Below, piece after piece: positions 22,345-43,576 of a DNA stretch of 64,000 nt (the first letter of the stretch is position 1; every line of letters begins with the position of its first letter). The notes beneath the pieces were generated by a model. The model made no database searches. It had not been told where the DNA came from and worked only from the letters and a program-made list of their open reading frames with translations. This stretch comes from Alphaproteobacteria bacterium (GTDB taxonomy: Bacteria > Pseudomonadota > Alphaproteobacteria > Rickettsiales > SXRF01). The stretch spans positions 4,698 to 68,697 of the forward strand of contig JAGVLW010000053.1 of assembly GCA_020054105.1 (NCBI GenBank), read 5' to 3'. A program made the translations under genes and the position numbers.

Positions 22345-22363
22345 TGGCGTGCCCGGCAGGAAT
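22345..22363. repeat. attL: displaced 3'-terminal 19 nt of tRNA-Arg
   Basis: Identical to 43396-43414. The sequences diverge immediately beyond both ends. Confidence 0.85.
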
Positions 22364-22461
22364 GACTCGGGCCTGCTGACCCTCGCCCTACGGGCGGCCA
22401 AGCGGCCGTCAAATTCGTCTTACTGACGAATTTACGAACCGGTTCTCATCCTACATACGTT

Positions 22462-22504
22462 CATTACTACCTTCCCATGGTTTTACCATGGGAAGGTAGT
22501 AATG
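22462..22504. repeat. perfect 20-bp-stem inverted repeat just inside the island's left end
   Basis: CATTACTACCTTCCCATGGT-TTT-ACCATGGGAAGGTAGTAATG, read directly from the sequence. It abuts a degenerate second copy of the att core (AATGGCGTGCCC, 22501-22512). Confidence 0.7.
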
Positions 22505-23071
22505 GCGTGCCCTGGTGGACACGCTTCGAACTTTACCGGAGCTGCGCCTGGTTGTCATGCGCTACCCGGAGATGAAGCGCCAGCACATTGGCGAAATGCT
22601 CTGGCAGGCCGGAAACGCCGCCTGACCGCGCCTTTTACGGCCTTTGCGAAACCCGTTTCGCCGGTCATTTCGTTTTTCAATGTGCCGGAACCGAGGGTTT
22701 CCAATGCCTTGCGTTAAAAAAAGCGAAACGAAATCGGTTTATAGGTGCTGGCGCTAGCGAGATTCCGGGCGTTGCGCCCCCGCATAGCATTCGCGCCGGA
22801 AGGACCCAAAAAGCCCTCCCACTGTAAGTGGCTCTGGCTCTTGGTTTGCGGGAGAAGGTGTAAAACGGGCGCGCTTGCTGCCTTCCGGCTGGTGCCGCAG
22901 AAAGGCCAAAAAGTGCTGTGTTTTTGTGAAAAAGTGCACGTTTTCGGCCAAACTGTGCACGATCTCCCGTCATTGGTGCAAGTACGCCGGACTGTCTTAA
23001 GTCAACAAAATTCCCCAAAAGTCATCCTTAAGTCGATAAAATTCCCATATGACGCCGTTCGCCTGGTGGTA

Positions 23072-24166
23072 TCAGGAAGATATTCGCTCTTCGAGTCTGG
23101 CCAGTTCGCTCATGATCGTCTCAAACTCCGGCGCTTCGCCGATGAACATTTCCTGCATGGCGGCATAATCCCGCTTGAGTTCCGGCAGCATTGCTTCTTG
23201 TGGCGCGAGGCGAAGACTACCGATGACGGCCGTATCGTAAGACGCCTTACTGTCCGCAAACATCAGGCTTTTGTTCCTGACCACTTTCTCCAGCAGCGTC
23301 ACATCTTGAAGCGCCGCATCGGCAATGCCTTTCTGTGCCATGATGAAAGTGTCGTAATAATGGCGGGACATGCGGTCGCGCATCTTCGAGCCGTGGTGCA
23401 ATGCATGCAGGATGGTGGCTTTCTCCCAGAATGTCCGCTCCGCCGCCAGCACGTGGACGTTGCTATGCGGATCGTCAAACAGCTGCTGAAACGCATCGGA
23501 AACGTAAGGCGTGATTCGCTTATTCTCGCTCGGCTCAATGTCCCCGCGCGCGCCGAACTCCAGCCGCACGATTGGTTTGATATAGCCTGGCGCTTCCCAC
23601 GTTTGAGTAAGCCCTGCTCCGCCAATGCCAGGTTTGGGATGCGCTGAAAGACCACCTCCACCAAGTCCTCCACGAGAAACTGTATAAGATTGCAACGCTG
23701 GATAGGAGAATAATATCGTTTGCCGATCCGGATCGTCGGCGTCGAGCGCCAGTTTCCAGTCGCTAGGCAGTTTTCCGGCAAAGGATTTTTGCAGCGTCGG
23801 CAACGCCAGTTCCGCCACAAAGCGTCGGGCGTTTTCTTTCAGCGTGTCGATCCTGCGCTGACGCTCCTTGCCGGAGATGTCCGTGTCCATTGGATCGGCG
23901 CCTTCGGTGAGATAGGGTGCATCGCGGCTGATCGTCAGATCAATATCCTCGGAGAAGCGTTCGATCAGGCGGTAAGCCTTCGACAGTGACGTACCGCCCT
24001 TGAAGGTGATGTGCGGTGTCATCTGCGGATTCTCAAAAATCTGCCTGAGTGTCCAGCACACCCAGAAATCCTTTTCGATGATGATCGGCAGAATGCCTTG
24101 CCTGTTCGCCGCTTCTTGAAACGCCGTTCTTTTTTCTTCCTCAGGCAGTGCGATGAATTTGTCCAT
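23072..24166 (-). CDS. abiEii: AbiEii/AbiGii-family nucleotidyltransferase toxin (type IV TA)
   Basis: EKDFWVCWTLRQIF...ITFKGGTSLSKAYRLIERFSEDIDLTISRD is the family N-terminal signature. 364 aa. Confidence 0.8.
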   Translation of the reverse strand: MDKFIALPEEEKRTAFQEAANRQGILPIIIEKDFWVCWTLRQIFENPQMTPHITFKGGTSLSKAYRLIERFSEDIDLTISRDAPYLTEGADPMDTDISGKERQRRIDTLKENARRFVAELALPTLQKSFAGKLPSDWKLALDADDPDRQTILFSYPALQSYTVSRGGLGGGGLSAHPKPGIGGAGLTQTWEAPGYIKPIVRLEFGARGDIEPSENKRITPYVSDAFQQLFDDPHSNVHVLAAERTFWEKATILHALHHGSKMRDRMSRHYYDTFIMAQKGIADAALQDVTLLEKVVRNKSLMFADSKASYDTAVIGSLRLAPQEAMLPELKRDYAAMQEMFIGEAPEFETIMSELARLEERISS

Positions 24167-24761
24167 GTTTTACGTGCTCTATTTTATGAATCGCATCCGC
24201 CATCCAGCCGGGGATACGATCCATCGCCTGATGCAGCCCGGCTAAATCCTTGCCCGTCAGCACGCGCGCGCAACGGCTGATAATCTGGTCGTCCACGCTT
24301 TTCCTGCCAAGATAAGAAAGTGCCTGCAGCGTCAGATTAGCATGGTCAGGGATATTGTCGAGCCATGCCACGCGCGCGCGCTTCAACTGGATAGTCTGTC
24401 CTGCTACGCGCCGCGTGCGAATGGTCGCATTCGTGAGGTAAGATAGCTTGATCGGCACCTGCGTAGAGAGCCTCATAAGATTCGCCGCCATCGCGCCGGA
24501 GGGAAAAACATGATCGCCCGCCGCCAATGCACGCGCAATATTATCCGGCGTAGGCGAAAGCGGGCCGAGCAATTTGCTTTGTTTCGGATAATAGTAAATG
24601 CCACGATCCAAGCGACGGATCATGCCCTGCTTCGCCAGCCGCGACAGCACCTGATCCACGCTAGCGCGCGTGCCGACGTTCAGGAAGTCTCTGGGCGTAA
24701 AAACCCAGCCCGGCTTCCTGCGCCGTATTCTGCCTGTAATCTTATCGGTTATGGATGTCAT
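24141..24761 (-). CDS. abiEi: AbiEi-family antitoxin / transcriptional autoregulator
   Basis: From ATG 24761: MTSITDKITGRIRRRKPGWVFTPRDFLNVGTRASVDQVLSRLAKQGMIRRLDRGIYYYPK (wHTH). Overlaps abiEii by 26 nt. G-rich RBS. Confidence 0.75.
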   Translation of the reverse strand: MTSITDKITGRIRRRKPGWVFTPRDFLNVGTRASVDQVLSRLAKQGMIRRLDRGIYYYPKQSKLLGPLSPTPDNIARALAAGDHVFPSGAMAANLMRLSTQVPIKLSYLTNATIRTRRVAGQTIQLKRARVAWLDNIPDHANLTLQALSYLGRKSVDDQIISRCARVLTGKDLAGLHQAMDRIPGWMADAIHKIEHVKHGQIHRTA

Positions 24762-24779
24762 AATGATCCCCCCCCTATA

Positions 24780-24809
24780 TGTCAGATAATACCATAGTTT
24801 TATCTGACA
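24780..24809. promoter_or_regulatory. candidate AbiEi operator (10-bp perfect inverted repeat, 10-bp spacer)
   Basis: TGTCAGATAA-N10-TTATCTGACA, 19-48 bp upstream of the abiEi start. Confidence 0.4.
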
Positions 24810-24909
24810 AACAAGCCAGGTTATTCTGCACCAAGAATGCAAATTAACATATTGAATATTATTGTTATTAGTCTATGTGGTGTATCTTCCGCAATAAGAG
24901 GAGAGAAAC

Positions 24910-25161
24910 ATGCAATATAGCACCCATCTGCTGCGCCACTGGCGCTTCACCATCGGCCAAAATATCCACCGGCGCCGCGTCGCGCGGAAATTACCGCTGC
25001 GGAAACTCACCCGCCTCACCGGTATATCGGAATTGCTGCTCGACCACTATGAGATGGGAAAGAACGAGATCGGCCTGGACGATCTGCTCAAAATCGCCTG
25101 CGCGCTGGAAGTAGAAGTACGGGAATTGATTGGCCAGACCAAACCCGTCCATAGTTCTTGA
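24910..25161 (+). CDS. XRE-family HTH transcriptional regulator
   Basis: 83 aa, IGQNIHRRRVARKLPLRKLTRLTGISELLLDHYEMGKNEIGLDDLLKIACALEV (HTH_3 pattern). GAGGAGAG RBS. Confidence 0.75.
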   Translation: MQYSTHLLRHWRFTIGQNIHRRRVARKLPLRKLTRLTGISELLLDHYEMGKNEIGLDDLLKIACALEVEVRELIGQTKPVHSS

Positions 25162-25191
25162 CATATTCTGATACGTCCATAATAATGGACG
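25158..25191 (+). promoter_or_regulatory. candidate ars promoter with overlapping palindromic operator
   Basis: TTGACA (25158-63), a 17-nt spacer, then AATAAT (25181-86). The palindrome CGTCCAT-AATA-ATGGACG (25174-91) spans the -10. The arsR ATG lies 7 nt after the -10. Confidence 0.4.
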
Positions 25192-25192
25192 A

Positions 25193-25552
25193 ATGAATAT
25201 CGATCACGCACTCATTGCCTTTTCCGCGCTGTCGCAGGAGACGCGGCTTTCCGTCTTCAAGCTGCTTATCGAGTATGGGAAAAGCGGCTCTCCGGCGGGA
25301 GCCTTGAGCGACCAGCTCGACATTCCGCACAACACGCTCTCGTTCCATCTCGCGCATCTCACCCATGCCGGACTGGTAACATCGCGCAAGCAGGGGCGGC
25401 AGATGATCTACGCCGCCAACTGCGACACGGTGGAAGGGCTGATCGATTACCTGAAGGAAAACTGCTGCATCCGCGAAGACGCATCTTCCGGCTGCGCCAC
25501 TGATTGCAAACCGAAACCAAAGCCTATGAAAAGGAGGCGGCATGATAGATGA
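25193..25552 (+). CDS. arsR: ArsR/SmtB-family metalloregulator
   Basis: FSALSQETRLSVFKLLIEYGKSGSPAGALSDQLDIPHNTLSFHLAHLTHAGLVTSRKQGRQMIY with a C-terminal Cys cluster (ENCCIREDASSGC). Confidence 0.88.
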   Translation: MNIDHALIAFSALSQETRLSVFKLLIEYGKSGSPAGALSDQLDIPHNTLSFHLAHLTHAGLVTSRKQGRQMIYAANCDTVEGLIDYLKENCCIREDASSGCATDCKPKPKPMKRRRHDR

Positions 25553-26516
25553 TATTTGGCATGGTAGAACCGCCTATATTAAAGGTTTTTGGGGATGGTC
25601 ACCAGAAACATGGGCCTCAATAGGTTTCCGCGACAACTATCGTGATACGTTAATCAGCAAAACCACCAATCCCTTCATTATGGTGATTTACATCACCATA
25701 CATTCAGGAGAGAAAGAAGAAATGCTGGGTAAAATCGTTGGATTTTATCTTGTTTCGCACGAGAAGGGTCATCGGGATGAATTTACTGCGCCTGAGCATT
25801 ATCAGAGACATCCTGAAAAATGGCCGCACGCGATAAGAGCTATTCGAGCCTTTAGTTTTCTTCCCGAATATTACCTTGATGTGTATGACTTTGATCCTGC
25901 TATCAAGCGTGCCGCAGTTCCCACGGCAGAAAGAGGGAGAGAGCTTTCGGATGAACAAGTAAAATTGCTTAAAACCATCCCCTACATTGAAGTGCCGATT
26001 TTTGGCGGCAATAGCGTTATTGACCGCACAATCCATGTTCCGCCAGCGGCAAAAACGAAGATTAAGGTGCGGGGTGGCCCAATCAACCGCTCTGGATATG
26101 TAGTGGATGGCGAACCTATCGATACCCCAAAGGAACTTTACTCACTTATTTTGAAAGGTGAGACATCCGTTTTTCTGGGCGATGCAGCGTCCCAATTCCA
26201 GCTATATAAAATCGGCTTATCTATGAGCCCACAAACCAGGCTTTCTGCATTTCAAGAAGCATTGCCCAGAACTTTGCCTGAAGGAAGAATAGGATGGTCT
26301 CTGCATCGTTCAACGCGGCGAGATGGCCATGAACCGTACCCTAACTTTGATGCCGCGCTTGTAGGGGAAGAGGCCATGAAAGATTATTTAGGTGCCCACG
26401 GCACATGGCTTGGCGGTGAATTTTATGCCGCGACAAAAGAGAATTTTGAAAAGGCGTGGGAGATAGGCCGCGCTACCGCTCTTCAACCCGTAGAAAGAAT
26501 AGGAGGCAAAAAATGA
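25542..26516 (+). CDS. hypothetical protein with a C-terminal T5orf172/GIY-YIG-superfamily-like domain
   Basis: 324 aa, visibly lower GC than its neighbours, with a strong AGGAGG RBS inside the arsR 3' end. The C-terminal LYKIGLSMSPQTRLSAFQ...GGEFYAATKENFEKAW resembles the T5orf172 pattern (hydrophobic-KIG-x-T/S...R...EFF). Confidence 0.55.
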   Translation: MIDDIWHGRTAYIKGFWGWSPETWASIGFRDNYRDTLISKTTNPFIMVIYITIHSGEKEEMLGKIVGFYLVSHEKGHRDEFTAPEHYQRHPEKWPHAIRAIRAFSFLPEYYLDVYDFDPAIKRAAVPTAERGRELSDEQVKLLKTIPYIEVPIFGGNSVIDRTIHVPPAAKTKIKVRGGPINRSGYVVDGEPIDTPKELYSLILKGETSVFLGDAASQFQLYKIGLSMSPQTRLSAFQEALPRTLPEGRIGWSLHRSTRRDGHEPYPNFDAALVGEEAMKDYLGAHGTWLGGEFYAATKENFEKAWEIGRATALQPVERIGGKK

Positions 26517-26983
26517 AACGCCTGCATGTGCATATCGCCGTCGAGGATTTAGAGAAATCCATCGGCTTTTATTCCACCCTGTTCGGCGAGAAGCCGAGCA
26601 AACAGAAGCCCGGCTATGCCAAATGGATGCTGAACGACCCGCGCGTCAACTTCGCCATCTCCGCCCGCGGCGCCAAGCCTGGGCTGGATCATCTGGGCAT
26701 CCAGGTGGACGCGCCGGAGGAACTGGAGGATTTACGCGAGCATCTGAAACGCGCCGATCTCGGCCTGTTCGACGAGGGCGAGGCCACCTGCTGCTATGCG
26801 GAATCCGATAAGTCGTGGGTGCGCGATCCTTCCGGCATCGCCTGGGAAGCCTATCACACGATGGCCGACGCCGAACTGTTCAGCGTGCCCAAACCTGAGG
26901 GCATGAGCGCCTGCTGCGCGCCGAAGATGGAAACCAAACCGGCCGCGTCCTCCTGCGGCACGGCGAAGTCCGACTGCTGCTGA
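26513..26983 (+). CDS. arsI: ArsI/CadI-family glyoxalase-fold metalloenzyme (C-As lyase-like)
   Basis: From ATG 26513: MKRLHVHIAVEDLEKSIGFYSTLFGE...LDHLGIQV...CCYAESDKSWVRDPSGIAWE, with a Cys-rich tail. Confidence 0.8.
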   Translation: MKRLHVHIAVEDLEKSIGFYSTLFGEKPSKQKPGYAKWMLNDPRVNFAISARGAKPGLDHLGIQVDAPEELEDLREHLKRADLGLFDEGEATCCYAESDKSWVRDPSGIAWEAYHTMADAELFSVPKPEGMSACCAPKMETKPAASSCGTAKSDCC

Positions 26984-27459
26984 TGAAAAACGTTCTGTTC
27001 CTCTGCACCGGAAATTCCTGCCGTTCCATCATGGCCGAGGGGCTGCTGAACCATTACGGCAAAGGCAAATTCCGCGCCTTTTCCGCCGGGAGCTTCCCCA
27101 CCGGCAAGGTGCATCCCATGAGCCTGGAAATGCTAAAGCGCCACGGCATGAGTGCGTTCGGCTATGAAAGCAAATCGTGGGACGTGTTCAAGAATCTCCA
27201 TGAACTCGACATCGTCATCACCGTCTGCGACAATGCCGCCGGTGAGGTCTGCCCTATCTTCCCCGGCGCGCCGGTCAAGGCGCATTGGGGCGCGCCCGAC
27301 CCGGCGCATTTTGAAGGAACGCCGGAAGCGGTGGAATCCGAATTTGACCGCGTGTTCGCCATACTGGAGCGCCGCGTCAAGGCGCTGGTAGCGCTGCCGG
27401 TGGAGACGATGGATAAGGAAGAACTCCGGCAACAACTCAACGCCATAGGCGAACTATGA
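26983..27459 (+). CDS. arsC: arsenate reductase (LMW-PTP / thioredoxin-coupled type)
   Basis: MKNVLFLCTGNSCRSIMAEG P-loop and a downstream TVCDNAAGEVCP redox-cysteine region. Confidence 0.9.
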   Translation: MKNVLFLCTGNSCRSIMAEGLLNHYGKGKFRAFSAGSFPTGKVHPMSLEMLKRHGMSAFGYESKSWDVFKNLHELDIVITVCDNAAGEVCPIFPGAPVKAHWGAPDPAHFEGTPEAVESEFDRVFAILERRVKALVALPVETMDKEELRQQLNAIGEL

Positions 27460-27924
27460 CCGACCAAACGACAATTGACCTGAAGCGGTTCAACAATAAT
27501 GCATACATCGAAGAGCGCGTTATTGCCGCCGACCTGGCGGATCGGGGTTCAGTTAAAACTGCTCTGCGCTATTTATACCTTGATGACGGCCCCATAAATC
27601 TACCGAGAGACAGGCAGAAAATAGCAGAGAAATATCTTGAGGACGCGGAAAGGATTCTGATTCGCTGGCTCGCAACCAGAACCAACGGCAGTGAACGAAA
27701 GAACTACGGGTCACGCGCGCTGATTACCGCCAGGTCAACCCGCTATCGTTGCCAGCAATGTGGGTTTTCAGACGTGCGCTGCCTGAATCTTGACCATATA
27801 GACGGCAGAGTGGATGGAACCGAATTTGCATGTCTCTGCGCGAATTGTCACACGATAAAATCACGACAAAAGGATTGGTCAGGAAAGGCATTGCGTCAGA
27901 AAGATGTAGAAGAGCAGACGCACT

Positions 27925-27935
<11 letters not shown>
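27456..27935 (+). CDS. HNH endonuclease-domain protein
   Basis: C-terminal [37 protein letters not shown] (C-x2-C...DH...C-x2-CH). Lower GC than arsC and acr3. ATGA overlap with arsC and an 11-nt overlap with acr3. Confidence 0.75.
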
Positions 27936-28965
<1,030 letters not shown>

Positions 28966-29077
28966 CATTTGCCTGCATAGCAGCGCTACACCGCCATCGA
29001 TCATCAGGTTGCCTTCACCATGATTTACTTGTTCGACCGCTGCTGATGACGAGAATTATCCAGCGATCAGCAGAAAA

Positions 29078-29875
29078 TTATGACTTTGGCCCTGTTAAAT
29101 CCGCCATCTCTTTCCGCGTGGTTTCTTTTGCCTCTCGCTCAAAATTTTCCGCCCTCAGCCGTGCAAAGCCTTCCGGATTTCTTTCGCAATGGTAATAGTA
29201 ATGGCGCATTTTCTGCTGTTTATCCGCTTCCCTGATTTCTCGCTCGGATTGCTTTATGTAGCCCGCCATCTTCAACCATTTAATGGTGGATTTACCAAAA
29301 ATGAAAAACAACAGGAGCGTTGCGAACCATGTGTATTTATCGCCCAAGAATTCGATGATGGCTGGTATAACCAATAGCCACAAAAAGAATAAGAAAAGTA
29401 GAACATGCTTTGCACGGCGCGTTTGCTGAACATGCGCAGCCACTTCCGCCTTGATCTGTTTTTCTGTCCGCGCAGGCAAATCGGCATACACCATGCGCAA
29501 ATGACCTTCCTGTTTTAGATGATCTGGGAATTCCCCATTTTTCAAGCCTCTCCGTACCATTACCAATTGGTCGGCGCCTGGATCGTAATATCCGCAGATA
29601 TGGTCATATGGCCTTACGGATGACAAATCCAATACGGTATCCGTATCGTCGGAAGCAGATGCCATCAGCGGAATAGGAAACTTTCTCGCCCAATACTGGA
29701 ATTCTTTTTCCAGTATCTCCGTTACGGTCGCGGGAGCCGATGGTGCAAGAAACGTCACGGTCAGATGGGCCAGCCACATATCCGAGCGCGGCGGCAGGTA
29801 TTCGATATAGAAGCCGTCTCTTGCCTCTTTAATTGGTTCCCAGATTATAAACCCATCATGCATTGCCTTGGTCAT
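29078..29875 (-). CDS. hypothetical two-TM membrane protein coupled to zorD
   Basis: 265 aa: a soluble N-domain of about 165 aa, two TM helices (HVLLFLFFLWLLVIPAIIEFL and WFATLLLFFIFG), and a charged C-tail. Its start lies 3 nt after the zorD stop. Confidence 0.6.
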   Translation of the reverse strand: MTKAMHDGFIIWEPIKEARDGFYIEYLPPRSDMWLAHLTVTFLAPSAPATVTEILEKEFQYWARKFPIPLMASASDDTDTVLDLSSVRPYDHICGYYDPGADQLVMVRRGLKNGEFPDHLKQEGHLRMVYADLPARTEKQIKAEVAAHVQQTRRAKHVLLFLFFLWLLVIPAIIEFLGDKYTWFATLLLFFIFGKSTIKWLKMAGYIKQSEREIREADKQQKMRHYYYHCERNPEGFARLRAENFEREAKETTRKEMADLTGPKS

Positions 29876-29878
29876 GCG

Positions 29879-33214: not shown

Positions 33215-33216
33215 GG

Positions 33217-34650: not shown

Positions 34651-34653
34651 TCT

Positions 34654-35409
34654 TTAATGCTCCGCCACGGCTCGTTTAATGCGTTCTACGTCTTCCGGCG
34701 TTGGTGATCGCATGATAAAGCGCAAGTCGATGCGGCGGTTCTGTGCAGCATCATTTTTCTTAACTATCGGTCTGCGTGCTTCGTAGCCGCTTACGGCCAG
34801 CACCGGAACATTTTGCATATTCAGTATATCATCATCCAGGACGGGCTGTGCCGCGGTCAACCCTCGAAACACGTTGATGGCGCGATTGGCGGAGAGTGTC
34901 CAGTTATCGAAGCCAGTTTCTGCCCCGGTGCGATCCGTATGGCCTTCGATCAATACCGTTTCCAGGGCTTCCTGGCTTTTAAGGCTGAGCTTTGCGCATG
35001 CTTCTTTTAATGTATCGTTCTTTACACGCGCCAGGCAGGGAAGATAGGTTCTCAATACTCCAGCCAACTTGATAAGTGCCTCATTGCCGTCTGCACTTAG
35101 CTCGTATCTTCCCCGGTCAAATAAAATTTTGTCCGGCAGGCGGAGAATGCCTTGTTCTTCATCCACCTCAACTTCTATGCCGAGTTCTTTGAGGCTTTTT
35201 TTAATTTCCTGCAGCACTATATTCCGGGATTCGATCATTGCGGTCACCTGTTCGGTGACATCCCTTGCTGTCTGCTCTGTATTGCGCATGTTACTGGCAA
35301 AGAGCATCAGCATAATAATAAAGATAAAAAGTATGCCTACGAGCAAATCCGTGAATGAAGCAAAATAGCTTTCATCATGGGTGTCGGTGGCTATGTCATG
35401 TGCGCTCAT
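34654..35409 (-). CDS. zorB: ZorB-like MotB/OmpA-family protein
   Basis: TM with a conserved Asp (FASFTDLLVGILFIFIIML) and a C-terminal OmpA-like peptidoglycan-binding motif IEGHTDRTG...NWTLSANRAINV...NRRIDLRF. Confidence 0.8.
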   Translation of the reverse strand: MSAHDIATDTHDESYFASFTDLLVGILFIFIIMLMLFASNMRNTEQTARDVTEQVTAMIESRNIVLQEIKKSLKELGIEVEVDEEQGILRLPDKILFDRGRYELSADGNEALIKLAGVLRTYLPCLARVKNDTLKEACAKLSLKSQEALETVLIEGHTDRTGAETGFDNWTLSANRAINVFRGLTAAQPVLDDDILNMQNVPVLAVSGYEARRPIVKKNDAAQNRRIDLRFIMRSPTPEDVERIKRAVAEH

Positions 35410-35419
35410 AATGCCTCAA

Positions 35420-37384
35420 TCATGCCGTCGCGGTTTTAGGAAGCTGCTTGTTTTGTTCCTCGCGCTCTTCCGTCAATTCGTTAATCGCGCCACTTAATGT
35501 CTGAATCGCCTCATTGAACGAACTGTCGAAGGATGTGACAAATTCCTTGACCTTCTGCTGGAACTCATCGGTGCCTTTTGCCAAGGTTGAGAAGGCATTT
35601 CCTAGGTCTGTATCGACTTTCTCAAAGCGAGTCTGGTAGCTGCTCCAGCTTGTATCCATACGCGTCATTACCTGTTTCAACGACTCACTGGCGCCGGACA
35701 TTGAACTGAATGCTCCCATAATAATGTCCTGTGCTTTCTGAATGGTGCCTACCGCCTCCATCATCTGACGGGAAAGCTGCTCGACGGGAGTAGCGGCCTT
35801 GGCCAACGTGCCGGAAGCATTTACCAGTTCCTTTACGTTTCCCTGCATGCTGTCCGCCACTTGCTTGAATTCCAACATGTGCCCACCGATCTTGACATGC
35901 ACATCATCCAGCTTCTGGGAAGAGCGGGTAAAATCATCTGCCGCGCCTTTGATTAACTGGCCAGCATCGTTTAACTGACCGCTGGTAGCCAGGAGGCGTT
36001 CCAGTGCGCCAGCCATTTGCCCGACGACATCTTTCAATGGCTCCAGATTACCGGAAAGCCCTTGCACTGTTGCCGCTAGTTCGCCGTGCGTCTTGCTCAG
36101 ATTACCGGCACTTTCCTTATTGCCGTCTGCCGCGCCTTGAATCTGTCCCCCAGCATGCTTGATGCTCTCCGCAATAATTTTAAGCGATTCCAGCACTTCC
36201 GTGAATTGCATGAGTGCTTTTTGTACGCCGGAAAAATCCGTAACGAAACGATCCATGGTTTCCGCCATTTTCTGCGTGGCATTACCCATTTCCTGCCCGA
36301 AATTACCGCCGAAGCCCTCTATCTTTCCGACAAGCTGATCCAGGTTGCTCGTAAGCGCCTTGATATTGCTTACCATCTGGTTCATTCCCTCGCCGGTATG
36401 CTGATGCATATTGCGCAGGAATTCTTCGAGTACAGATTTCAGAGCACCCTCATTACTGGAGTGATCGCGCTCGGCAATTTTCTTCAGCGTATCCACCAGC
36501 GGCGCCATTGCCTCGGAAACGCTCTTAGGGAGAGCATGGTTCATGATGCTTTCAAATTTAAGAGTGATATTGTCCGCCAGATTAGCCAGGTGAAATTTCT
36601 GCTCTTCTTGCACTAACAAAGAAGAATGCAAAAGTTTTTCTGCAGGTACAAATTCTGTACGCATCTCGATACCAATACAGAAATCGTGTATTTGCTTTCT
36701 AAGATTATTGAATAAGCGCCGCTGTATGACGGATAACACCAGACTAAGCAAAATCGCAAAAACAGAGGTGATAAATTTGGTAGACGCCACTCTGAGGAGT
36801 TTTTGCAATCCTTCGGTACTGGCAGAAGCAGTTGCCAGATCATGCTGTGCGACGGCGATAGCGGCGGCTAGCCCCAGAAACGTAAAAAGCAAACCGAGGC
36901 CAATAAGATAATTAGGGAATGCATAGAGCTGGGATAGATTGCGTCGCGCTCCAAGCACCGATTCTAATGTAAAATATCGCTGCGGGCGCGCCGTAAGGTG
37001 AACGGCTTGACGCATAGGCTTCGATATTTCAGCCGCAACGTCCCGACGGGGCGGTGGCGGTATAATCAATGTTTCCTGATATTGCTGCCATAGCTCCCGC
37101 AGGCAGTCTATTTGCTGTAACTCTCTGACATGCTTGTCAAAATGATCGTAAAACTCCTTTTGCAATTCATCTATGTGCTGATCGAACTCCCCCTCATGCG
37201 GTCGGTTTCTACCTAATGCAACGACTTTAAGCGCCTCTCTAAAGGCATCACGGACTTGGCGGGTGCTGGTAAAAGTATCGACAAGGGCAAAAATAAATAC
37301 GCCGCTGATAATGGCGATGAACACCGCAGGCGTATAAGGATCTGCCAGGATATCCCACAGGGGTTGTAAAAATGCGTGTTCCAT
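35420..37384 (-). CDS. zorA: ZorA-like MotA/ExbB-family channel protein with a long helical tail
   Basis: ATG at 37384 (the track start at 37420 is TTG). N-terminal TM, cytoplasmic loop and a TM pair (YLIGLGLLFTFLGLAAAI and KFITSVFAILLSLVLSVI), then roughly 400 aa of helical low-complexity tail. Confidence 0.8.
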   Translation of the reverse strand: MEHAFLQPLWDILADPYTPAVFIAIISGVFIFALVDTFTSTRQVRDAFREALKVVALGRNRPHEGEFDQHIDELQKEFYDHFDKHVRELQQIDCLRELWQQYQETLIIPPPPRRDVAAEISKPMRQAVHLTARPQRYFTLESVLGARRNLSQLYAFPNYLIGLGLLFTFLGLAAAIAVAQHDLATASASTEGLQKLLRVASTKFITSVFAILLSLVLSVIQRRLFNNLRKQIHDFCIGIEMRTEFVPAEKLLHSSLLVQEEQKFHLANLADNITLKFESIMNHALPKSVSEAMAPLVDTLKKIAERDHSSNEGALKSVLEEFLRNMHQHTGEGMNQMVSNIKALTSNLDQLVGKIEGFGGNFGQEMGNATQKMAETMDRFVTDFSGVQKALMQFTEVLESLKIIAESIKHAGGQIQGAADGNKESAGNLSKTHGELAATVQGLSGNLEPLKDVVGQMAGALERLLATSGQLNDAGQLIKGAADDFTRSSQKLDDVHVKIGGHMLEFKQVADSMQGNVKELVNASGTLAKAATPVEQLSRQMMEAVGTIQKAQDIIMGAFSSMSGASESLKQVMTRMDTSWSSYQTRFEKVDTDLGNAFSTLAKGTDEFQQKVKEFVTSFDSSFNEAIQTLSGAINELTEEREEQNKQLPKTATA

Positions 37385-37597
37385 GAAGATTCCCCACAAC
37401 TTATTATATTTGATGACCAATCATCATAAATCATGAGAAACTACTTGATATGCTTCCGAAAAGAAACGGTTTTCTAGTCTAAAGAATGTCTCTCCCGCAG
37501 AGGCATAACAGCATTGCGCATAAAACAAATCAATTCTGGTATAAGCTCATAAGTCTCAGTATGATGTCGTCCATTCAGGAAATGATGACGGACGCCT

Positions 37598-38356
37598 ATG
37601 CTATTCAACCCAGCCGCCAAGCGATTTACCTTTCGGGATTTACGCGCGCTTGCCGTAATGACAGACCCGGCGCTCAAGAAACAGCTAAATGCCAGCACAG
37701 CGGCCAGGGAATTTGCCGAGCATGTATATTCCCAATGTCGCCAGACCGAGGAAGATAAACGGCTATTCGGCGAAGAATTGGCAGTGTTGAAAGCGCGGTC
37801 TGACGCCATTCTTAAAACCGCGTATGAGCATGTGCGCCAGGAGCTGGCGGCAGAAGTGCTTTATGGATTTGGCACGAAGCCGCCGGTGACACCGCAAAGC
37901 GCTATCGACATCATACCTCCCCATTATTGGCTGTTTCTCCAGCTAAAGCCGGAAACCTCCGAAGCGTTCGGTCATGGGGTGCATTATGTGGGCATATTTT
38001 TCCAGCGGAAAGAGGATGTGCCCCCGGAAACTATCGCGTTGGTTAATGAAAGCCGGGGCAATGCATCCGTAGCCACGCCGGATATGCCGCCTCCGGTTTC
38101 AGCCGGAGAACAGCCCGATGAAGACCGTTACATTCCGCCTTATGTCCAGCTCCAACTGGACGCTATAAAGCATTTTAGCATCACCCCGGCGCATCATACG
38201 CTAAAGAAGACTATCACCGGCTGGCTGGAGAAAGAAGCCGCTGCCAGAGGCATCGAGCTTTCCGGGCGCATGCTGGAAAGCCTGGCTACATCCATCCGTC
38301 CGCCGGAAGCGCAAAAAGGCGGGAACAAAAAGCAGCACGAACCCGCTGAAGGGTGA
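37598..38356 (+). CDS. hypothetical island protein
   Basis: 252 aa, divergent from zorA. No recognisable motif. Confidence 0.45.
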   Translation: MLFNPAAKRFTFRDLRALAVMTDPALKKQLNASTAAREFAEHVYSQCRQTEEDKRLFGEELAVLKARSDAILKTAYEHVRQELAAEVLYGFGTKPPVTPQSAIDIIPPHYWLFLQLKPETSEAFGHGVHYVGIFFQRKEDVPPETIALVNESRGNASVATPDMPPPVSAGEQPDEDRYIPPYVQLQLDAIKHFSITPAHHTLKKTITGWLEKEAAARGIELSGRMLESLATSIRPPEAQKGGNKKQHEPAEG

Positions 38357-38542
38357 CATCGTTGCACCGGCAATCAGTAAAAACCGGCAAAGCATGTCGC
38401 CCCTGAGAGCGGCTAATTTCCTAGACAAATAAAGCCTGACACCCAGGGTGTCACCCCTGACGGCGCTACGGTAGCGCCTTTGATTTCGTCGTATTTTTTC
38501 TGGCATGCTGCCTCCCATCATCACGCATTATGGAGGTGCAGC

Positions 38543-38755
38543 ATGACACATTCAGAACACCCGGCCGGTGACCGGCTGCTAACGCGGAAGGAAGCGGCCG
38601 ATTATCTCGGCGTCGCGGAAAACACCCTGTCGGTATGGGCGAGCGAGGGGCGCTACAGGCTTCCCTATATCAAGGTCGGGCGGCTGGTGAAATACCGCCT
38701 GTCCGATCTGAACGAATTCCTCGCGCGCAATACGCAGGGCGGCGCGCATGAATAA
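38543..38755 (+). CDS. AlpA/MerR-like excisionase-family HTH protein
   Basis: ATG at 38543 with a GGAGG RBS. LLTRKEAADYLGVAENTLSVWASEGRYRLPYIKVGRLVKYRLSDLNEFL is the typical excisionase HTH_17 pattern. Confidence 0.75.
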   Translation: MTHSEHPAGDRLLTRKEAADYLGVAENTLSVWASEGRYRLPYIKVGRLVKYRLSDLNEFLARNTQGGAHE

Positions 38756-41141
38756 CATTTCCTCCTTCTCCAGCCTGCGCGAACTTGGCTTCAGTGTTTT
38801 CCCGCTCCAGGCGCGGAGCAAGAAACCTGTCGGCAGTTGGAAGGAGTATCAGACCACATCAGCTAATGCCGGGGAATGCGCCGCATGGGAAACGGCCTAT
38901 CGCTACAACCCCTACAATATCGGCATTGCCACCGGCAGCGTGTCCGGCTGCTTCGTGCTGGATGTGGACGGCGAGCAAGGACGTGAGACGTTGGCGAAGC
39001 TGATCGCAGAGCATGGTGAGTTGCCTGCCACGCCCACCGTTAAAACCGGTAAGGGACAGCATTATTATTTCCGCTATCCGGCGGGATATACAGTGCGCAA
39101 CCTTGCAGGGCGGAGTGTGCATGGCGAGATTCTTCCCGGCATCGACCATCGTGGCGACGGCGGATATGTGGTGGCGCCGCCCTCGATCCATCCCGACGGC
39201 ATGGCGTATGAATGGATCGTCAGCCCGTGGCAGACGACGCTGGCGGATGCACCGGCATGGCTGCTGGAACTGGTGGCCGTGCCGGAGAATAATGAGACAC
39301 TGGATTTCAACGGCGCGGCTGACAATATTCCCGCCGGGGCTTATCTCGAAAAAGCCCTCGCCAACGAACTGACACTACTGACACAAGCTCCGGCCGGGCA
39401 GCGCAATGACCGGCTGAACCGGGCGTCATTCAGCCTCGGCCAGCTTATTGCGGCGGGGCTGGACGAGGACATGGTAAGGCGTGAATTGCATGCAGCCGCG
39501 CGCATGGCCGGGTTGGAAGACGTGGAGATAACACCCACCATCGACAGCGGTATCGCCGCCGGGAAGCAGAAGCCGCGCGACATTCCTGCTAATGCCGATT
39601 CCGCTAATTCTGCTAACGCCAATGCGAACAGGATTAGCGGAATTAGCAATGCCAGCATTAGCGAGTGGCAGACACCCACTCCGTTGACACAGGAAATTGC
39701 GGCGCAGGAACCGTACCCGGTGGAAGCGTTGCCGGATGTTATCCGCGAGGCGGTGGCCAGCTATCAGGCTTACGGCCAGCAGCCGGTGCCCATCGTCGCC
39801 ATCGCCGGGTTGGCGAATGTCAGCCTGGCCTGTCAGGGATTGGCCGATATTGCCCGCGACGAAGTGCTGACCGGCCCCATCTCGCTCAACTTCATTGTCA
39901 CCGCCGACAGCGGCGAGCGCAAAACCTCGGCGGATAAAGTCTTTTCCAAAGCGGCGCGCGAATGGGAAAAAGCAAAGCGCGCAGCTATGCAGGCGGAATT
40001 AAAACAGGCGAAAATTCTGGTCGACGCCTATCTCGCCACCCGCGCGGGCATTACGCAGCAGATCACCAGCGCCAGCAAGAACGGCGGCACGGCGGATCAG
40101 CTGGGCGCGCTCCAAGCGGCATTGCAGCAGATTGATACGGAAGCGCCGCAACTACCCGTCATCCCCACGCTGCTGTTCGAGGACGTGACGCAGGAGGCCT
40201 TGATCGACGAACTGGCCAGGGGGCATCCATCGGCGGCGCTGTACAGTGACGAGGCGGCAATTGTTATCGGTTCACATGGATTTCACCAGGAGCGTTGCCT
40301 GCGCTATTTCGGTCTGATCAACCGTTTGTGGGACGGCAACGGTTACAAACGCCAGCGCATTACCAGCGAGAGCACCAGTTTCTACGGCAGGCGCATGACC
40401 TGCTCGCTGATGATGCAGCTTTCGGTGTTGAAGACACTCATAAGCGTGGCCGATGGGCAGAGCCGCAATACCGGATTTCTCGCCCGCGTGCTGATTGCCT
40501 GCCCGGATAGCACGATGGGCACGCGGTTCTACAAGGAACCGCAGTCACTCGACCGGGCACTGGACGCATTCCACGCGCGCATTCATGCGTTGCTGGAAAT
40601 GCCGTTGCCGGTGGACAAGGAAACGGGCGAACTCACGCCGCCATTGCTAGGCTTAAGCAATGAAGCGCACCAGATGTGGGTGGAGTATTATAACGAGACG
40701 GAATTAGCCATCGGTGCACGGGGAGAATTTTATTCTGTCCGCGATTTTGCCGCTAAGTCCGCCGAGAATGCGGCCAGGCTTGCCTGCAACTTTCATATCT
40801 TCCAGCAGGGCGCGACCGGCGAGGTGGACAGCGACGCCATGCAGCGCGCCATCACCATCATGCAATGGCACCTGCGCGAAACGCTGCGCGTATTCAGCCA
40901 CATCGATACGCCGGAGGAAATGACGCATGCCCGGCTGCTGCTGGAATGGCTGAAGCGGAAGAATCACCGCACCATCACCGCCAGCGAGATCGCCACGCAC
41001 GGCCCTAACCAGCTGCGCCAGCGCGAAGCGCGTCATGCCGCGCTCAAAACCCTCTGCGAGCACGGTTACCTGCGTGAGCGCGCCGTCGGCCGCAACCGGC
41101 AATACGAGGTCAATCCCTCCCTGGCGGAGGTAACGCCATGA
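38748..41141 (+). CDS. bifunctional primase-polymerase (PrimPol N-domain) fused to a DUF3987/YfjI-like helicase-type domain
   Basis: The N-terminus FPLQARSKKPVGSWKEYQ...CFVLDVDGEQG...KTGKGQHYYFRYP...GIDHRGDGGYVVAPPSIHPDGMAYEW is Prim-Pol-like. The C-terminal half (LLFEDVTQEALIDELARGHPSAALYSDEAA...RLWDG) is DUF3987-like. Confidence 0.85.
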   Translation: MNNISSFSSLRELGFSVFPLQARSKKPVGSWKEYQTTSANAGECAAWETAYRYNPYNIGIATGSVSGCFVLDVDGEQGRETLAKLIAEHGELPATPTVKTGKGQHYYFRYPAGYTVRNLAGRSVHGEILPGIDHRGDGGYVVAPPSIHPDGMAYEWIVSPWQTTLADAPAWLLELVAVPENNETLDFNGAADNIPAGAYLEKALANELTLLTQAPAGQRNDRLNRASFSLGQLIAAGLDEDMVRRELHAAARMAGLEDVEITPTIDSGIAAGKQKPRDIPANADSANSANANANRISGISNASISEWQTPTPLTQEIAAQEPYPVEALPDVIREAVASYQAYGQQPVPIVAIAGLANVSLACQGLADIARDEVLTGPISLNFIVTADSGERKTSADKVFSKAAREWEKAKRAAMQAELKQAKILVDAYLATRAGITQQITSASKNGGTADQLGALQAALQQIDTEAPQLPVIPTLLFEDVTQEALIDELARGHPSAALYSDEAAIVIGSHGFHQERCLRYFGLINRLWDGNGYKRQRITSESTSFYGRRMTCSLMMQLSVLKTLISVADGQSRNTGFLARVLIACPDSTMGTRFYKEPQSLDRALDAFHARIHALLEMPLPVDKETGELTPPLLGLSNEAHQMWVEYYNETELAIGARGEFYSVRDFAAKSAENAARLACNFHIFQQGATGEVDSDAMQRAITIMQWHLRETLRVFSHIDTPEEMTHARLLLEWLKRKNHRTITASEIATHGPNQLRQREARHAALKTLCEHGYLRERAVGRNRQYEVNPSLAEVTP
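39587..39663. repeat. GCTAAT-rich inverted-repeat module, copy 1 (inside the PrimPol linker)
   Basis: CCGCTAATTCTGCT (39601-14) and ATTAGCGGAATTAGCAAT (39633-50), flanked by further GCTAAT/ATTAGC units. Confidence 0.55.
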
Positions 41142-41638
41142 CCGCCGCTGCTGCTAATCCCGCTAATTCTGCTTATCCACGCCGGTTAGCTGCATTAGCG
41201 GAATTAGCAATCATCCCCCACCATCACTTCAGGAGACCACCCATGACCCACCGCAAAGCTCTTACCGAATCCGCCAGGAAAGACTGGATGTATTTTCCCT
41301 ACGACGAGCGCTCGGCGCTTTCCCTGTTCAACCATGATGCCTGCGAAGGTGTGGAACTGATCCATGTGCTCATGGCGCAATATCAGGCACAGGCGGAAAC
41401 GCTAGCCGGGATCGTGCATACGCTGCGGTTGTTCGCCCACAACTACCGGCGCTCGTATCACCGCCTGGCCGCAAAAGGATTGCTCATCCGTATCGACGAC
41501 CATTACCGGAAGCAGGCGGAAGCCGTCATCGAAAAAACGGAACGCCTGGTCGAAAGCTGCGCCCTGCCGATGCCGGAGGGCGGCTACCTGGTCTGCGACG
41601 GGGTGTTTCCCGGCCGGGACAGGGATTGCGACGAATAG
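41138..41638 (+). CDS. hypothetical island protein
   Basis: 166 aa. The first ~35 codons are the repeat module, so the internal start MTHRKALTE (41240) is at least as likely. Confidence 0.4.
   Translation: MTAAAANPANSAYPRRLAALAELAIIPHHHFRRPPMTHRKALTESARKDWMYFPYDERSALSLFNHDACEGVELIHVLMAQYQAQAETLAGIVHTLRLFAHNYRRSYHRLAAKGLLIRIDDHYRKQAEAVIEKTERLVESCALPMPEGGYLVCDGVFPGRDRDCDE
41153..41211. repeat. GCTAAT-rich inverted-repeat module, copy 2 (just after the PrimPol stop)
   Basis: CCGCTAATTCTGCT (41160-73) and ATTAGCGGAATTAGCAAT (41194-211), both identical to the copy 1 cores. Confidence 0.55.
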
Positions 41639-41662
41639 CCACCAGCCATCGAGGCCACCATC

Positions 41663-41866
41663 ATGCCGGTAGATCAAGACATACTCGAACGTAAGGCCGA
41701 CGAGCTGACACAGACCGAGCTTTTCGAGCGAATTGTCTACAAAATCCGCCGCAAATACGACTTTCAAATCAGCGAGATGGAGGCCATTGCGGCTGCACGG
41801 AACCTTATCGGATTTACCCAAACACTGCTTGAACTCTCCAAACATAGCGGTAATGTCGAGCCATGA
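41663..41866 (+). CDS. hypothetical small protein
   Basis: 67 aa. Overlaps the recombinase start by 4 nt. Confidence 0.4.
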   Translation: MPVDQDILERKADELTQTELFERIVYKIRRKYDFQISEMEAIAAARNLIGFTQTLLELSKHSGNVEP

Positions 41867-43437
41867 GCCGGAAAATCGTCCGATTTGAAGAATATAAGCC
41901 CGCTGGCCTGAAAAAGGCCATCATCCTGGCGCGCGTCTCCACCAAAGACCAGGAAGAGGGCTATTCCATAGCTGCGCAGAAACACCGGCTGCAGCAATAT
42001 TGCGAGCGCAAGGGATTGGAGATCATTCGCACTTTCGAGCTGGTGGAATCCTCTACCCACGGTGACCGCAAGGATTTCGCGCAGATGATCGACTTCATCC
42101 GCAAGCAGCGCGAGTGTGTGGCGTTAGTAGCGGATAAAGTGGACAGGGTTCAGCGCAGCTTCAAGGAATTCCCGATGCTCGATGCGCTGATCCAGGAAGG
42201 CAAGCTGGAGCTGCATTTCAATACCGAAAATTACATCATCCACCGCGAATCCGTTTCGCAGGAACGGCTGATGTGGAGCATTGGCGTGGTGATGGCGCAG
42301 TCCTACGTCGATTCCCTGCGCGATAACGTCAAGCGCAGCTTTGACCAGAAGATACGCACCGGCGAATGGATCGCCACCGCGCCGGTCGGCTATATGAATG
42401 CCAAGGATAGCCGTGGCCGTGGCACGGTAGTGGTGGACGAAGCGCGGGCGCTGCTGGTGCGGCGGCTGTTCGAAGAATATGCCACCGGCAGCTATACGCA
42501 AGGCCAGATGGTAAAAGAGGCTCGGCAATGGGGATTGCGCAATGCCCGCGGCAAGCAGGAGCCGCTGGTGCGGTCACAGATAAACCGGGTACTGCAAAAT
42601 CCGTTTTACTACGGCGAGATGGAAGTGAAGGGTAAGCGCTATCCGCACGTCTATACGCCGCTGATTACCAAAGACCTGTACGATAGATGCCAGGCGGTGC
42701 GGCTGGGCTGGCATAAGAAGCCATTCGCCTATGCCGGGAAGGATTACATCTTCCGTGGGCTGATTACCTGCGACACTACCGGCAAGACGGTTACGGCCGA
42801 TACAAAAACCAAGCGTTACCAGAACGGCAATACCGCCGAATATACCTACCTGATGTGCTGGAACCCCGAAGACCCGGACAAACGCATGTGGGTGCGGGAA
42901 GATACCGTCCTGGCCGAGGTGGAGCAGGTATTCAAGAACATGGGCATTGATGACGATATTTACGAGGACGTGGTCGCCTATGCCCGCAACACCTGCGATA
43001 CCGAAAAGGCTTTCCATAAGCGCCAGATGCAGGAAACCACCCGCGAAATCGAGGCCATCCAGGGCAAGCTCAATAAGCTGATGGACTTGCTGCTGGAGGG
43101 CGCTATCGAAAAGGCCGAGCATGATGAGAAACGCGCCGCCCTGCGGAGCAGGCAGGTTGATCTGACCAACCTGATTAACAGTTACCACGGCGCCGATGAC
43201 GGCTTCCGCGACGCCGTGGTGGATATGCTGGAACTCAGCAAAAAAGCCCATGAATTGTTCGTAAGTTCGAACAACCAAGGCAAAAGGCGGCTTATCAATT
43301 TCGTGTTTTCGAACCTGTCCCTGAAAGGCGAAAAGCTGGCATTCCGCCTGAGACAGCCCTTTGACCAGTTTGTCAATGCGGTCAAAATTGAAGAATGGCG
43401 TGCCCGGCAGGAATCGAACCTGCGACCCACAGCTTAG
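41863..43437 (+). CDS. large serine recombinase (integrase)
   Basis: Resolvase-type N-terminus KKAIILARVSTKDQEEGYSIAAQ, a recombinase domain, a Cys-containing segment (LITCDTTGK...YLMC) and a coiled-coil C-terminus. The last 14 codons overlap tRNA-Arg. Confidence 0.9.
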   Translation: MSRKIVRFEEYKPAGLKKAIILARVSTKDQEEGYSIAAQKHRLQQYCERKGLEIIRTFELVESSTHGDRKDFAQMIDFIRKQRECVALVADKVDRVQRSFKEFPMLDALIQEGKLELHFNTENYIIHRESVSQERLMWSIGVVMAQSYVDSLRDNVKRSFDQKIRTGEWIATAPVGYMNAKDSRGRGTVVVDEARALLVRRLFEEYATGSYTQGQMVKEARQWGLRNARGKQEPLVRSQINRVLQNPFYYGEMEVKGKRYPHVYTPLITKDLYDRCQAVRLGWHKKPFAYAGKDYIFRGLITCDTTGKTVTADTKTKRYQNGNTAEYTYLMCWNPEDPDKRMWVREDTVLAEVEQVFKNMGIDDDIYEDVVAYARNTCDTEKAFHKRQMQETTREIEAIQGKLNKLMDLLLEGAIEKAEHDEKRAALRSRQVDLTNLINSYHGADDGFRDAVVDMLELSKKAHELFVSSNNQGKRRLINFVFSNLSLKGEKLAFRLRQPFDQFVNAVKIEEWRARQESNLRPTA

Positions 43438-43471
43438 AAGGCTGTTGCTCTATCCCCTGAGCTACGGGCAC
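43396..43471 (-). tRNA. tRNA-Arg (anticodon UCU)
   Basis: Reverse complement is GTGCCCGTAGCTCAGGGGATAGAGCAACAGCCTTCTAAGCTGTGGGTCGCAGGTTCGATTCCTGCCGGGCACGCCA. It folds as a cloverleaf with a 7-bp acceptor stem, a CUUCUAA anticodon loop, a GGTTCGATTCC T-arm and an encoded CCA. Confidence 0.93.
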
Positions 43472-43576
43472 GTTACGCCTAGTTACGCGAGGCGGGCCGG
43501 GGATTCAAGGGAAAAGCAATAAAGGCTTGCAAAACAAAACGCTTTGCTGGTATTTATTCCACCCTTCAAGGGATTG

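Follow-up and report, generated by a model that had tools for sequence, protein, structure and literature searches.

The window analyzed here is a 64,000-nucleotide stretch of contig JAGVLW010000053.1 (GenBank assembly GCA_020054105.1), which comes from an alphaproteobacterium of the order Rickettsiales, and it carries an integrative element inserted at a tRNA gene. At the right end of the element lies a tRNA-Arg(UCU) gene (positions 43396-43471, minus strand), intact and with its CCA included, which ARAGORN reports as tRNA-Arg(tct) and which scores 70.9 bits with the Rfam tRNA model; a tRNA-Val(gac) gene, found by ARAGORN and confirmed with Rfam, is located at 43577-43653. The gene of a large serine recombinase (LSR; 41863-43437, plus strand, 524 amino acids in its present integrated form) enters the tRNA-Arg gene by 42 nt on the opposite strand. 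At the left end we identified a module of the RtT type, a tRNA-linked repeat (TLR; 22345-22502, minus strand), whose final 19 nt (22345-22363) reproduce the tRNA-Arg 3' end. We are confident that the locus contains a 20,893-bp integrative element, located between the tRNA-Arg(UCU) gene and a resident TLR, driven by the LSR and with its attP site inside the integrase gene (int).

A first-pass annotation of this DNA had described an island precisely delimited by a perfect 19-bp direct repeat of the tRNA-Arg 3' end. The repeat, TGGCGTGCCCGGCAGGAAT, was recovered by a scan of the window in exactly two exact copies (22345-22363 and 43396-43414), with no further copies in the window at up to three mismatches, for which chance predicts 0.01 matches. 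ARAGORN and Rfam agree that the right copy completes the minus-strand tRNA-Arg, as had been proposed. Insertion at the 3' end of this gene, followed by its regeneration, was also well predicted, since the tRNA-Arg gene stays intact because the element supplies a new 3' end. The role given to the 19-bp repeat as the boundary of the island does not hold, as the repeat is the 3' end of an RtT-like TLR that is also found behind tRNA genes where no island is present.

The 12-bp core and the integrase gene

The repeat that bounds the element is shorter. The 12-bp core AATGGCGTGCCC is located at 43394-43405 (plus strand, attR), and a k-mer scan identified an identical copy at 22501-22512 (plus strand, attL), which represents the original chromosomal 3' terminus of the tRNA-Arg and directly abuts a perfect hairpin. 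This third, partial copy of the tRNA end had been missed earlier and puts the true left junction 156 bp inward of the left 19-mer. The last 10 nt of the tRNA-Arg gene (43396-43405) fall inside the core common to attP and attB and are re-supplied by the element. As in other integrative elements at tRNA genes, the integrase is beside the tRNA, the tRNA 3' end is duplicated at the far junction (as the 12-bp core and not as the 19-mer) and the tRNA is regenerated.

Beyond the attL core, positions 22513-22625 (plus strand) contain the P' arm and a detached 3' coding segment of the integrase gene, formed by about 37 codons (LVDTLRTLPELRLVVMRYPEMKRQHIGEMLWQAGNAA) and closed by a stop codon at 22623-22625. 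The sequence that starts at 22513 has its homologs in the left ends of two related elements, L083 and L003 (the loci used for comparison are designated by L numbers), and with L083 this homology is seen in the protein sequence. Joining 43405 to 22513 keeps the LSR frame open and gives a protein of 551 amino acids, compared with 524 in the integrated form, with the tail WRALVDTLRTLPELRLVVMRYPEM and the ending KIEEWRALVDTLRTLPELRLVVMRYPEMKRQHIGEMLWQAGNAA. In an alignment of the reconstructed tails, W, D, R, T, and R show no variation or almost none, the tail agrees with that of at least 41 of the 120 best homologs, and the detached tail of the window keeps all the conserved residues. With the true junction at the 12-bp core, the island therefore comprises 22513-43393 plus one copy of the core, that is, 20,893 bp. 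The predicted attB (...CCATGGGAAGGTAGTAATGGCGTGCCCGGCAGGAATCGAACCTGCG...) corresponds to 22480-22512 joined to 43406-43430, and the predicted attP (...GCGGTCAAAATTGAAGAATGGCGTGCCCTGGTGGACACGCTTCGAACTTTACC...) to 43377-43405 joined to 22513-22540. The block of identity between both sites measures 12 bp in the window, 7 bp in L083, and about 12 bp in L003. In L001, L082, and L083, the tRNA end was not found to be directly repeated over 11 bp or more, which was the first hint that the cores of this family are short. At the level of sequence comparison, both the anatomy of the junctions and its conservation across related elements are established.

Had the 19-bp copies been attL and attR, the island would extend from 22345/22364 to 43414, and the TLR-like 156 bp would be its left end. 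The repeat is perfect, far beyond what chance allows, and a block from the T-loop to the CCA has the length and position typical of many tyrosine-integrase islands. However, the recombinase found here is of the serine type, and joining the ends at the 19-mer leaves the LSR ending at ...WRARQE*, tailless, with 156 bp containing stop codons that separate the gene from its tail. Furthermore, the homology of the P' arm to the left ends of L083 and L003 begins at 22513 and not at 22364, the TCGAAC found next to the repeat in the real tRNA is missing after the TLR copy, and the module, together with its 19-nt repeat, lies behind tRNA genes that have neither island nor recombinase. We consider this version of the boundaries highly improbable. 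It would give an attB formed by GCGGGGAGCGG, the 19-mer and CGAACC, an attP formed by GAAGAA, the 19-mer and GACTCGGG, and a circle junction that contains the TLR (GAAGAATGGCGTGCCCGGCAGGAATGACTCGGG); the empty-site junction proposed on this basis (22344 joined to 43415) and the circle junction are both off by 156 to 168 bp.

A search for an orthologous empty site through the synteny of the neighboring ABC-F gene found none; the neighborhood is rearranged, and L009 and L008 are not syntenic. With the ABC-F gene taken as the reference, the two closest relatives (L002, 12917-13750; L007, 12556-12800) have the divergent tRNA-Arg/tRNA-Val pair (43396-43653 in the window) in the opposite orientation, so there has been a local rearrangement in this neighborhood. 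We also searched for P' with the reverse-complemented P arm; this search was insensitive and missed even the P' of the window, and the argument based on inverted repeats was dropped.

The tRNA-linked repeat next to the element

The module at 22345-22502 lies outside the island. On the minus strand, positions 22345-22470 match the Rfam RtT model (RF00391) over its full length (1-130/130) with 18.6 bits, and the homologous modules of L007 and L086 match it, also at full length, with 22.0 and 20.8 bits, RtT being the top match for the window and L007 modules. As the three scores are under the RF00391 gathering score of 45, we refer to the module as RtT-like and not as a member of the family. The modules and RtT have in common the blocks GGAUGAGAACC, GCCCGnAGGGCGAGG, and CGAGUnAU. 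When four modules are aligned, the hairpins are conserved, with compensatory changes in five base pairs. The perfect hairpin CATTACTACCTTCCCATGG-TTTT-ACCATGGGAAGGTAGTAATG (22462-22504, minus strand), which forms the B arm of attL, abuts the tRNA 3' end in the uninterrupted site, and equivalent hairpins adjoin intact tRNAs in L007, L086, and L088.

The tRNA-linked repeats of E. coli, among which RtT RNA was the founding one, are characterized by 18 to 19 nt that repeat the 3' terminus of the tRNA upstream (PMC8144298). When metagenomes were scanned with the motif of the module, five loci came up, and the RtT-like TLRs considered here are located at 12404-12555 in L007, 7781-7934 in L086, 686-835 in L088, about 4029-4288 in L089, and about 1075-1240 in L085. 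In L086, a hairpin and then the module come after a tRNA-Arg(tct), whose 3' end is repeated exactly over 19 nt in a copy that finishes 154 nt past the tRNA. L088 has the same layout behind a tRNA-Gly(tcc), with a 19/19-nt copy at 150 nt. In L007, whose ABC-F protein is 83% identical to that of the window, the module is 75% identical to window positions 22358-22451 and has an intact tRNA-Val on one side and a degenerate copy of the 3' end of this tRNA on the other, the two being only about 135 bp apart. The island-free loci (L086, L088, L007, and the others of the scan) do not encode any LSR. In the window, the end of the 19-mer is 158 nt beyond the 10-nt partial copy, compared with 150 to 154 nt in uninterrupted sites.

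In L086, L088, and L007 the module is directly downstream of the tRNA and on the same strand, as it also is in the window when the island is taken out at the 12-bp core; in the window, L086, and L088, its terminal nucleotides repeat without a mismatch (19/19) those at the 3' end of the upstream tRNA. With the cut made at this inner copy, the locus therefore shows exactly the arrangement of L086. As the locus before insertion already had a TLR with its 19-nt copy, the 19-bp repeat is older than the island. Judged by its sequence, the left 19-mer is the 3' end of the TLR and not an integration scar. A permuted tmRNA or a pseudo-tRNA was also considered for the module and rejected, as ARAGORN finds nothing in it and there is no 5' acceptor strand.

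The module could also be the decayed remains of an earlier element, a CIME-like relic, with the 19-bp and 12-bp copies as two successive att scars left by tandem accretion. As expected of an integrated element, it has direct repeats of the tRNA end on both sides, tandem units are present in L089 (next to a tRNA-Trp) and L085, and the origin of TLRs is not known (PMC8144298). Nevertheless, we find a conserved structured unit of about 150 nt that keeps a constant spacing behind at least four different tRNAs, with the terminal 16 to 19 nt varying to match each of them, and that matches the RtT model at full length. There is no integrase remnant nearby, and TLRs of E. coli are also found after 5S rRNA genes (PMC8144298). 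A relic of this kind is improbable, and even then the inner copy would still bound the 21-kb island.

A resident TLR next to an element bounded by the 12-bp core has practical implications. TLRs hold an exact 18- to 19-nt copy of the tRNA end and therefore can pass as att sites. Programs that look for islands at tRNA genes by means of direct repeats can misplace the boundary and, as happened here, predict wrong empty-site and circle junctions.

The serine integrase family and a model of integration

The LSR of the window contains the N-terminal Resolvase catalytic domain (PF00239, residues 19 to 169) and, after it, the Recombinase domain (PF07508, residues 195 to 279), has a visible ARVSTKDQ motif, and matches a PHROG integrase (6e-67). 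Pfam gives no PF13408 or Zn_ribbon_recom match in it, PF13408 being carried by a few of its homologs. Its last 14 codons, from the TGG at 43396, are antisense tRNA, and the C terminus of the integrated form reads WRA|RQESNLRPTA, where 10 antisense-tRNA codons follow the shared WRA. A total of 1446 homologs were found (E value of ≤1e-20). Among the 120 best, at least 41 end in the tail W..LVD.LRT.P..R..I.., while the ending W..(E/D)SN.., a translation of the antisense T-loop, is found in at least 34 and probably in about 45. No exact-sequence records were found for the LSR or for the outer membrane protein (OMP) of the flank. Viral contigs and plasmids, examined for close relatives of the LSR or episomal forms, gave identities of mostly about 37% (one of 55%) and of at most 33%, respectively.

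The targets of this family vary among tRNAs. The window and L001 (92% LSR identity) use tRNA-Arg(tct), L082 uses tRNA-Glu(ctc), and L083 and L084 use tRNA-Arg(acg). The junction AGAATGGCG is conserved in all five, its TGG being the complement of CCA. L083 is an element of 9.6 kb at tRNA-Arg(acg) with an LSR 73% identical to that of the window; its left end reads ATGGCGC|GCGGCTATCGACGCCATTCGAACACTACCAGAGC after a 7-bp copy of the tRNA end, and its rejoined LSR has 552 amino acids, with the tail ...WRAAIDAIRTLPEQR... and the ending ...GEWRAAIDAIRTLPEQRAAVMDFPKH... In L003, an orphan LSR tail adjoins a tRNA 3' fragment (AATGGTGGGGGC|TGGTAGATACATTCAGAACC) and encodes WWGLVDTFRT; this is the attL of another island that runs off the contig. 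The orphan tail (about 1780-1830, minus strand) lies upstream of the ABC-F gene at a distance of some 1 kb. L001 (1650-5727, element of about 4 kb), whose LSR is the closest related one, is probably a truncated remnant. The order of the core genes is the same in L001, L082, and L083, with different cargo in each element.

From this anatomy we can propose how the element was inserted. Before insertion, the locus would have consisted, in the sense of the tRNA, of the tRNA-Arg, the hairpin, the TLR of about 140 nt, and the 19-nt copy of the tRNA 3' end. The LSR would then have recombined the terminal nucleotides of the tRNA gene with its attP, which is contained in the 3' end of int itself (...GAAGAATGGCGTGCCC|TGGTGGACACGCTTCGAAC...). 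Integration regenerates the tRNA and leaves its old terminus at attL (22501-22512), next to the hairpin. As the int gene spans attP, the same event swaps its tail for antisense-tRNA codons, stranding the conserved tail of 37 residues (LVDTLRT...) at attL. Excision would rebuild the gene of 551 amino acids.

In serine integrases, the motif bound by the zinc ribbon domain is 5 bp nearer the center in attB than in attP, at half-site positions 11 to 19 and 16 to 24 bp, respectively (PMC3783163). With numbering that begins at the T of TGG, (A/T)TCGAAC starts at position 18 of B' and at position 23 of P', both in the window and in L083. The T-loop TCGAAC would thus be the candidate zinc ribbon domain motif, 5 bp closer to the center in attB than in attP. 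If it is taken as such, the crossover would fall near positions 5 and 6, equivalent to tRNA nucleotides 71 and 72 and within the identity block of all three elements. The missing TCGAAC of the TLR copy would explain why the island is at the true tRNA and not at the TLR. The swap of the tail may in turn affect the activity or the directionality of the enzyme.

A different outcome would be that the 12-bp core bounds the element correctly but the truncation of int is irreversible, leaving an immobile and decaying remnant. This would agree with the in-frame stop codon in one of its defense genes (zorC, see below), the lack of the conserved tail in the integrated int, the fact that a recombination directionality factor was not identified, and the resemblance of L001 to a 4-kb stump without a left end. 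Against it, the reading frame of int is open in its two halves and no conserved residue is lost from the detached tail, the two 12-bp cores are identical, and dozens of homologs in the integrated state keep full-length open reading frames (ORFs). In addition, window positions 38440-43370, which reach into the integrase gene, have 81% DNA identity to the L082 element, located at a tRNA-Glu and in the same assembly as the closest relative found, L002. Such identity at a different tRNA implies recent movement within the lineage. A fixed remnant is therefore a rather unlikely, although serious, alternative. For an integrative element bounded by the 12-bp core, mobility is plausible. The first-pass annotation had counted on intact recombination genes, and this is true of the recombinase ORF, which is open, but the gene called an excisionase can be described only as an HTH_17 (AlpA-like) DNA-binding protein.

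Several observations weigh against our reading of the locus. The only uninterrupted tRNA-Arg(UCU)-TLR site available is the analog in L086, a more distant relative, and the RtT scores of the modules are low, as given above. The inverted-repeat symmetry of the reconstructed attP is weak, and both the crossover position and the effect of the tail swap are points that we infer. On the 12-kb contig of L001 we detected no tail segment, attL, or repeat of the tRNA end. Lastly, LSR genes with an intact tail (class B) are found without a tRNA close by, in Bacteroidota-type surroundings that are chromosomal or resemble an integrative and conjugative element (ICE). L107 (10001-11632) is a case on a large chromosomal contig of Bacteroidota, and in L108 (6202-7842 and 11230-12444) one of these genes is accompanied by a relaxase and a tyrosine integrase; the L108 contig has no terminal overlap that would indicate circularity. 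These class B contexts suggest that the location of attP inside int may not hold for the whole family and is perhaps restricted to one clade.

Taking all this into account, we tentatively propose, as a possibility more than a probability, that there is a widespread and undescribed group of bacterial serine integrases that use universal features of the tRNA 3' end (CCA, acceptor stem, and T-loop TCGAAC) as attB, carry attP in their own coding sequence, and exchange a conserved C-terminal tail of 37 residues for antisense-tRNA codons upon integration. If true, the swap could act as a built-in switch, with the full-length enzyme of the circle being the one that integrates and the re-tailed form being silenced or redirected, which makes it a testable idea on the control of directionality. 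Genome engineering could also profit from serine integrases whose att sites are short and whose tRNA targets can be predicted.

Cargo genes and comparison with known systems

The genes listed by the first-pass annotation (AbiE, ars, Zorya, PrimPol, and recombinase) are each present according to Pfam, PADLOC, NCBIfam, and PHROGs. Its assumption that everything between the 19-bp copies is accessory was right for these genes but fails for the 156 bp at 22345-22500, which are conserved TLR and hairpin.

(i) Defense and resistance genes. The AbiE system, an abortive-infection pair, consists of adjacent genes for the AbiEii nucleotidyltransferase toxin (23072-24166, minus strand; Pfam AbiEii, 8e-39; PADLOC, 6e-104) and the AbiEi antitoxin (24141-24842, minus strand; Pfam DUF6088 and AbiEi_4; PADLOC, 3e-57). 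It is followed by the expected metal resistance operon, which is one of arsenic resistance (25193-28965, plus strand; Pfam, NCBIfam, and PHROGs) and codes for ArsR, a protein of 324 amino acids, ArsI/CadI, ArsC of the low-molecular-weight (LMW) phosphatase type, an HNH-like protein of 159 amino acids, and ACR3. The NCBIfam scores are 386 bits for ACR3 (cutoff, 283), 142 for ArsI/CadI (116), and 62 for ArsR (55). The operon carries two inserted genes, 25542-26516, whose 324-amino-acid product has no match in Pfam, NCBIfam, PADLOC, or PHROGs, and 27456-27935, which codes for the 159-amino-acid protein (HNH-like by PHROGs).

The type I Zorya operon zorABCD (29879-37420, minus strand) contains zorA (PADLOC, 2e-128), zorB (1e-83), zorC with the EH signature, and zorD with SNF2 and Mrr (1e-270), and downstream of zorD there is a gene for a 265-amino-acid protein (29078-29875, minus strand) without matches in Pfam, PADLOC, NCBIfam, or PHROGs. 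Not all four genes are intact. zorC (33217-34650) has an in-frame TAG at 33676-33678 on the minus strand (...EQFF*IISEIGEE...), and PADLOC reads ZorC as two pieces, covering profile positions 5 to 317 and 352 to 459. The system seems broken because of this stop codon and is probably inactive, unless the TAG is an assembly error. Of the two, possibly three, defense systems that had been announced, the genes for AbiE and Zorya are there, with the reservation of the zorC stop, and no third one was found: the 324-amino-acid, 265-amino-acid, and HNH-like proteins have no PADLOC support save a weak ZorE-like HNH match (2e-4).

(ii) Core module and flanking regions. The conserved core module (37598-41866, plus strand; Pfam, PHROGs, and ORF list) codes for a protein of 252 amino acids, an HTH_17 (AlpA-like) protein, a PrimPol-DUF3987 primase-helicase, and proteins of 166 and 67 amino acids. 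Within the family this module has either a PrimPol-helicase or a D5 primase, and the 67-amino-acid ORF overlaps the start of int. Close to the left end, a conserved noncoding block (22666-22963) contains the inverted repeat CATTTCGTTTTTCAA / AAAGCGAAACGAAATCG followed by three to four spaced GTGCA(C/G) repeats. It is 77 to 78% identical to L083 2142-2384 and L074 7468-7560 (wider regions, L083 2100-2384 and L074 7360-7620), matches no Rfam family, and may be an origin or an operator. Both flanks are ordinary chromosome, with flagellar export genes, ogt, an SDF symporter, the ABC-F ATPase, and an OMP beta-barrel on the left and ispH, panC, and thrS on the right. The ABC-F protein is 80 to 90% identical to proteins of metagenome-assembled genomes (MAGs) of uncultured Rickettsiales-like alphaproteobacteria.

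(iii) Known systems. The module behind the tRNA resembles the TLR/RtT repeats of E. coli in being on the same strand and right behind the tRNA, in its size of about 130 to 160 nt, in the 18- to 19-nt copy of the tRNA end, and in the possibility of tandem units. It differs in its host, uncultured Rickettsiales-like alphaproteobacteria instead of Enterobacterales, and in its scores (18.6 to 22 bits versus 45). Here, RtT-like repeats are found beyond the Enterobacterales.

The integrase shares with those of phiC31, Bxb1, A118/LI, SPbeta (SprA), and SCCmec (Ccr) the Resolvase and Recombinase domains and a size of about 520 to 550 amino acids. Like known large serine integrases, it appears to use short att sites with few base pairs of identity between attP and attB, and the candidate zinc ribbon motif has the 5-bp shift. 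Unlike them, the family of the window targets the 3' ends of tRNAs, of differing identity, and has attP within the coding sequence of int. Tyrosine integrases are the usual enzymes at tRNA genes, so a serine integrase that chooses tRNA 3' ends as they do, in a family that retargets among tRNAs, is of interest. The 10K island of Riemerella was considered as a precedent of a serine integrase at a tRNA and was rejected, as its integrase is a tyrosine enzyme.

The integrase IntP of the Myxococcus phage Mx8 also has attP inside its gene. Parallels are found in the archaeal integrases of the SSV1 type and in IntP/IntX of Mx8, where attP lies in int, integration at a tRNA splits or re-tails the gene, and excision would restore it. 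Those are tyrosine recombinases and the enzyme of the window is of the serine type, so it works alike but is not a member of either group. Besides, the int gene of SSV1 is cut at about its middle, while that of the window exchanges only the last 37 residues. An int gene split by its own integration is documented for archaeal tyrosine integrases, and a review describes the arrangement as confined to archaea (PMC8371274). For serine integrases, we found no description of attP inside int in the literature searched, which is weak negative evidence. If the model proposed here is true, these enzymes would represent, in bacteria and among the serine recombinases, the counterpart of the "suicidal" integrases of the SSV type known from archaea.

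Finally, the element is comparable to classical tRNA islands and to P4-like and phage-inducible chromosomal island (PICI) satellites, with which it shares the insertion at a tRNA 3' end, the regeneration of the gene, the combination of int, an AlpA-like HTH protein, and a PrimPol or D5 helicase, and the variable cargo. No genes for capsid remodeling, packaging, relaxase, conjugation, or transfer were found in the island, which codes for four proteins of unknown function. It departs from those islands and satellites in having a serine integrase and att sites with an identity of only 7 to 12 bp, versus their block from the T-loop to the CCA. The island is of an ordinary kind, a tRNA-borne integrative element with defense and resistance cargo, and its integrase is of the serine type, with attP in int.

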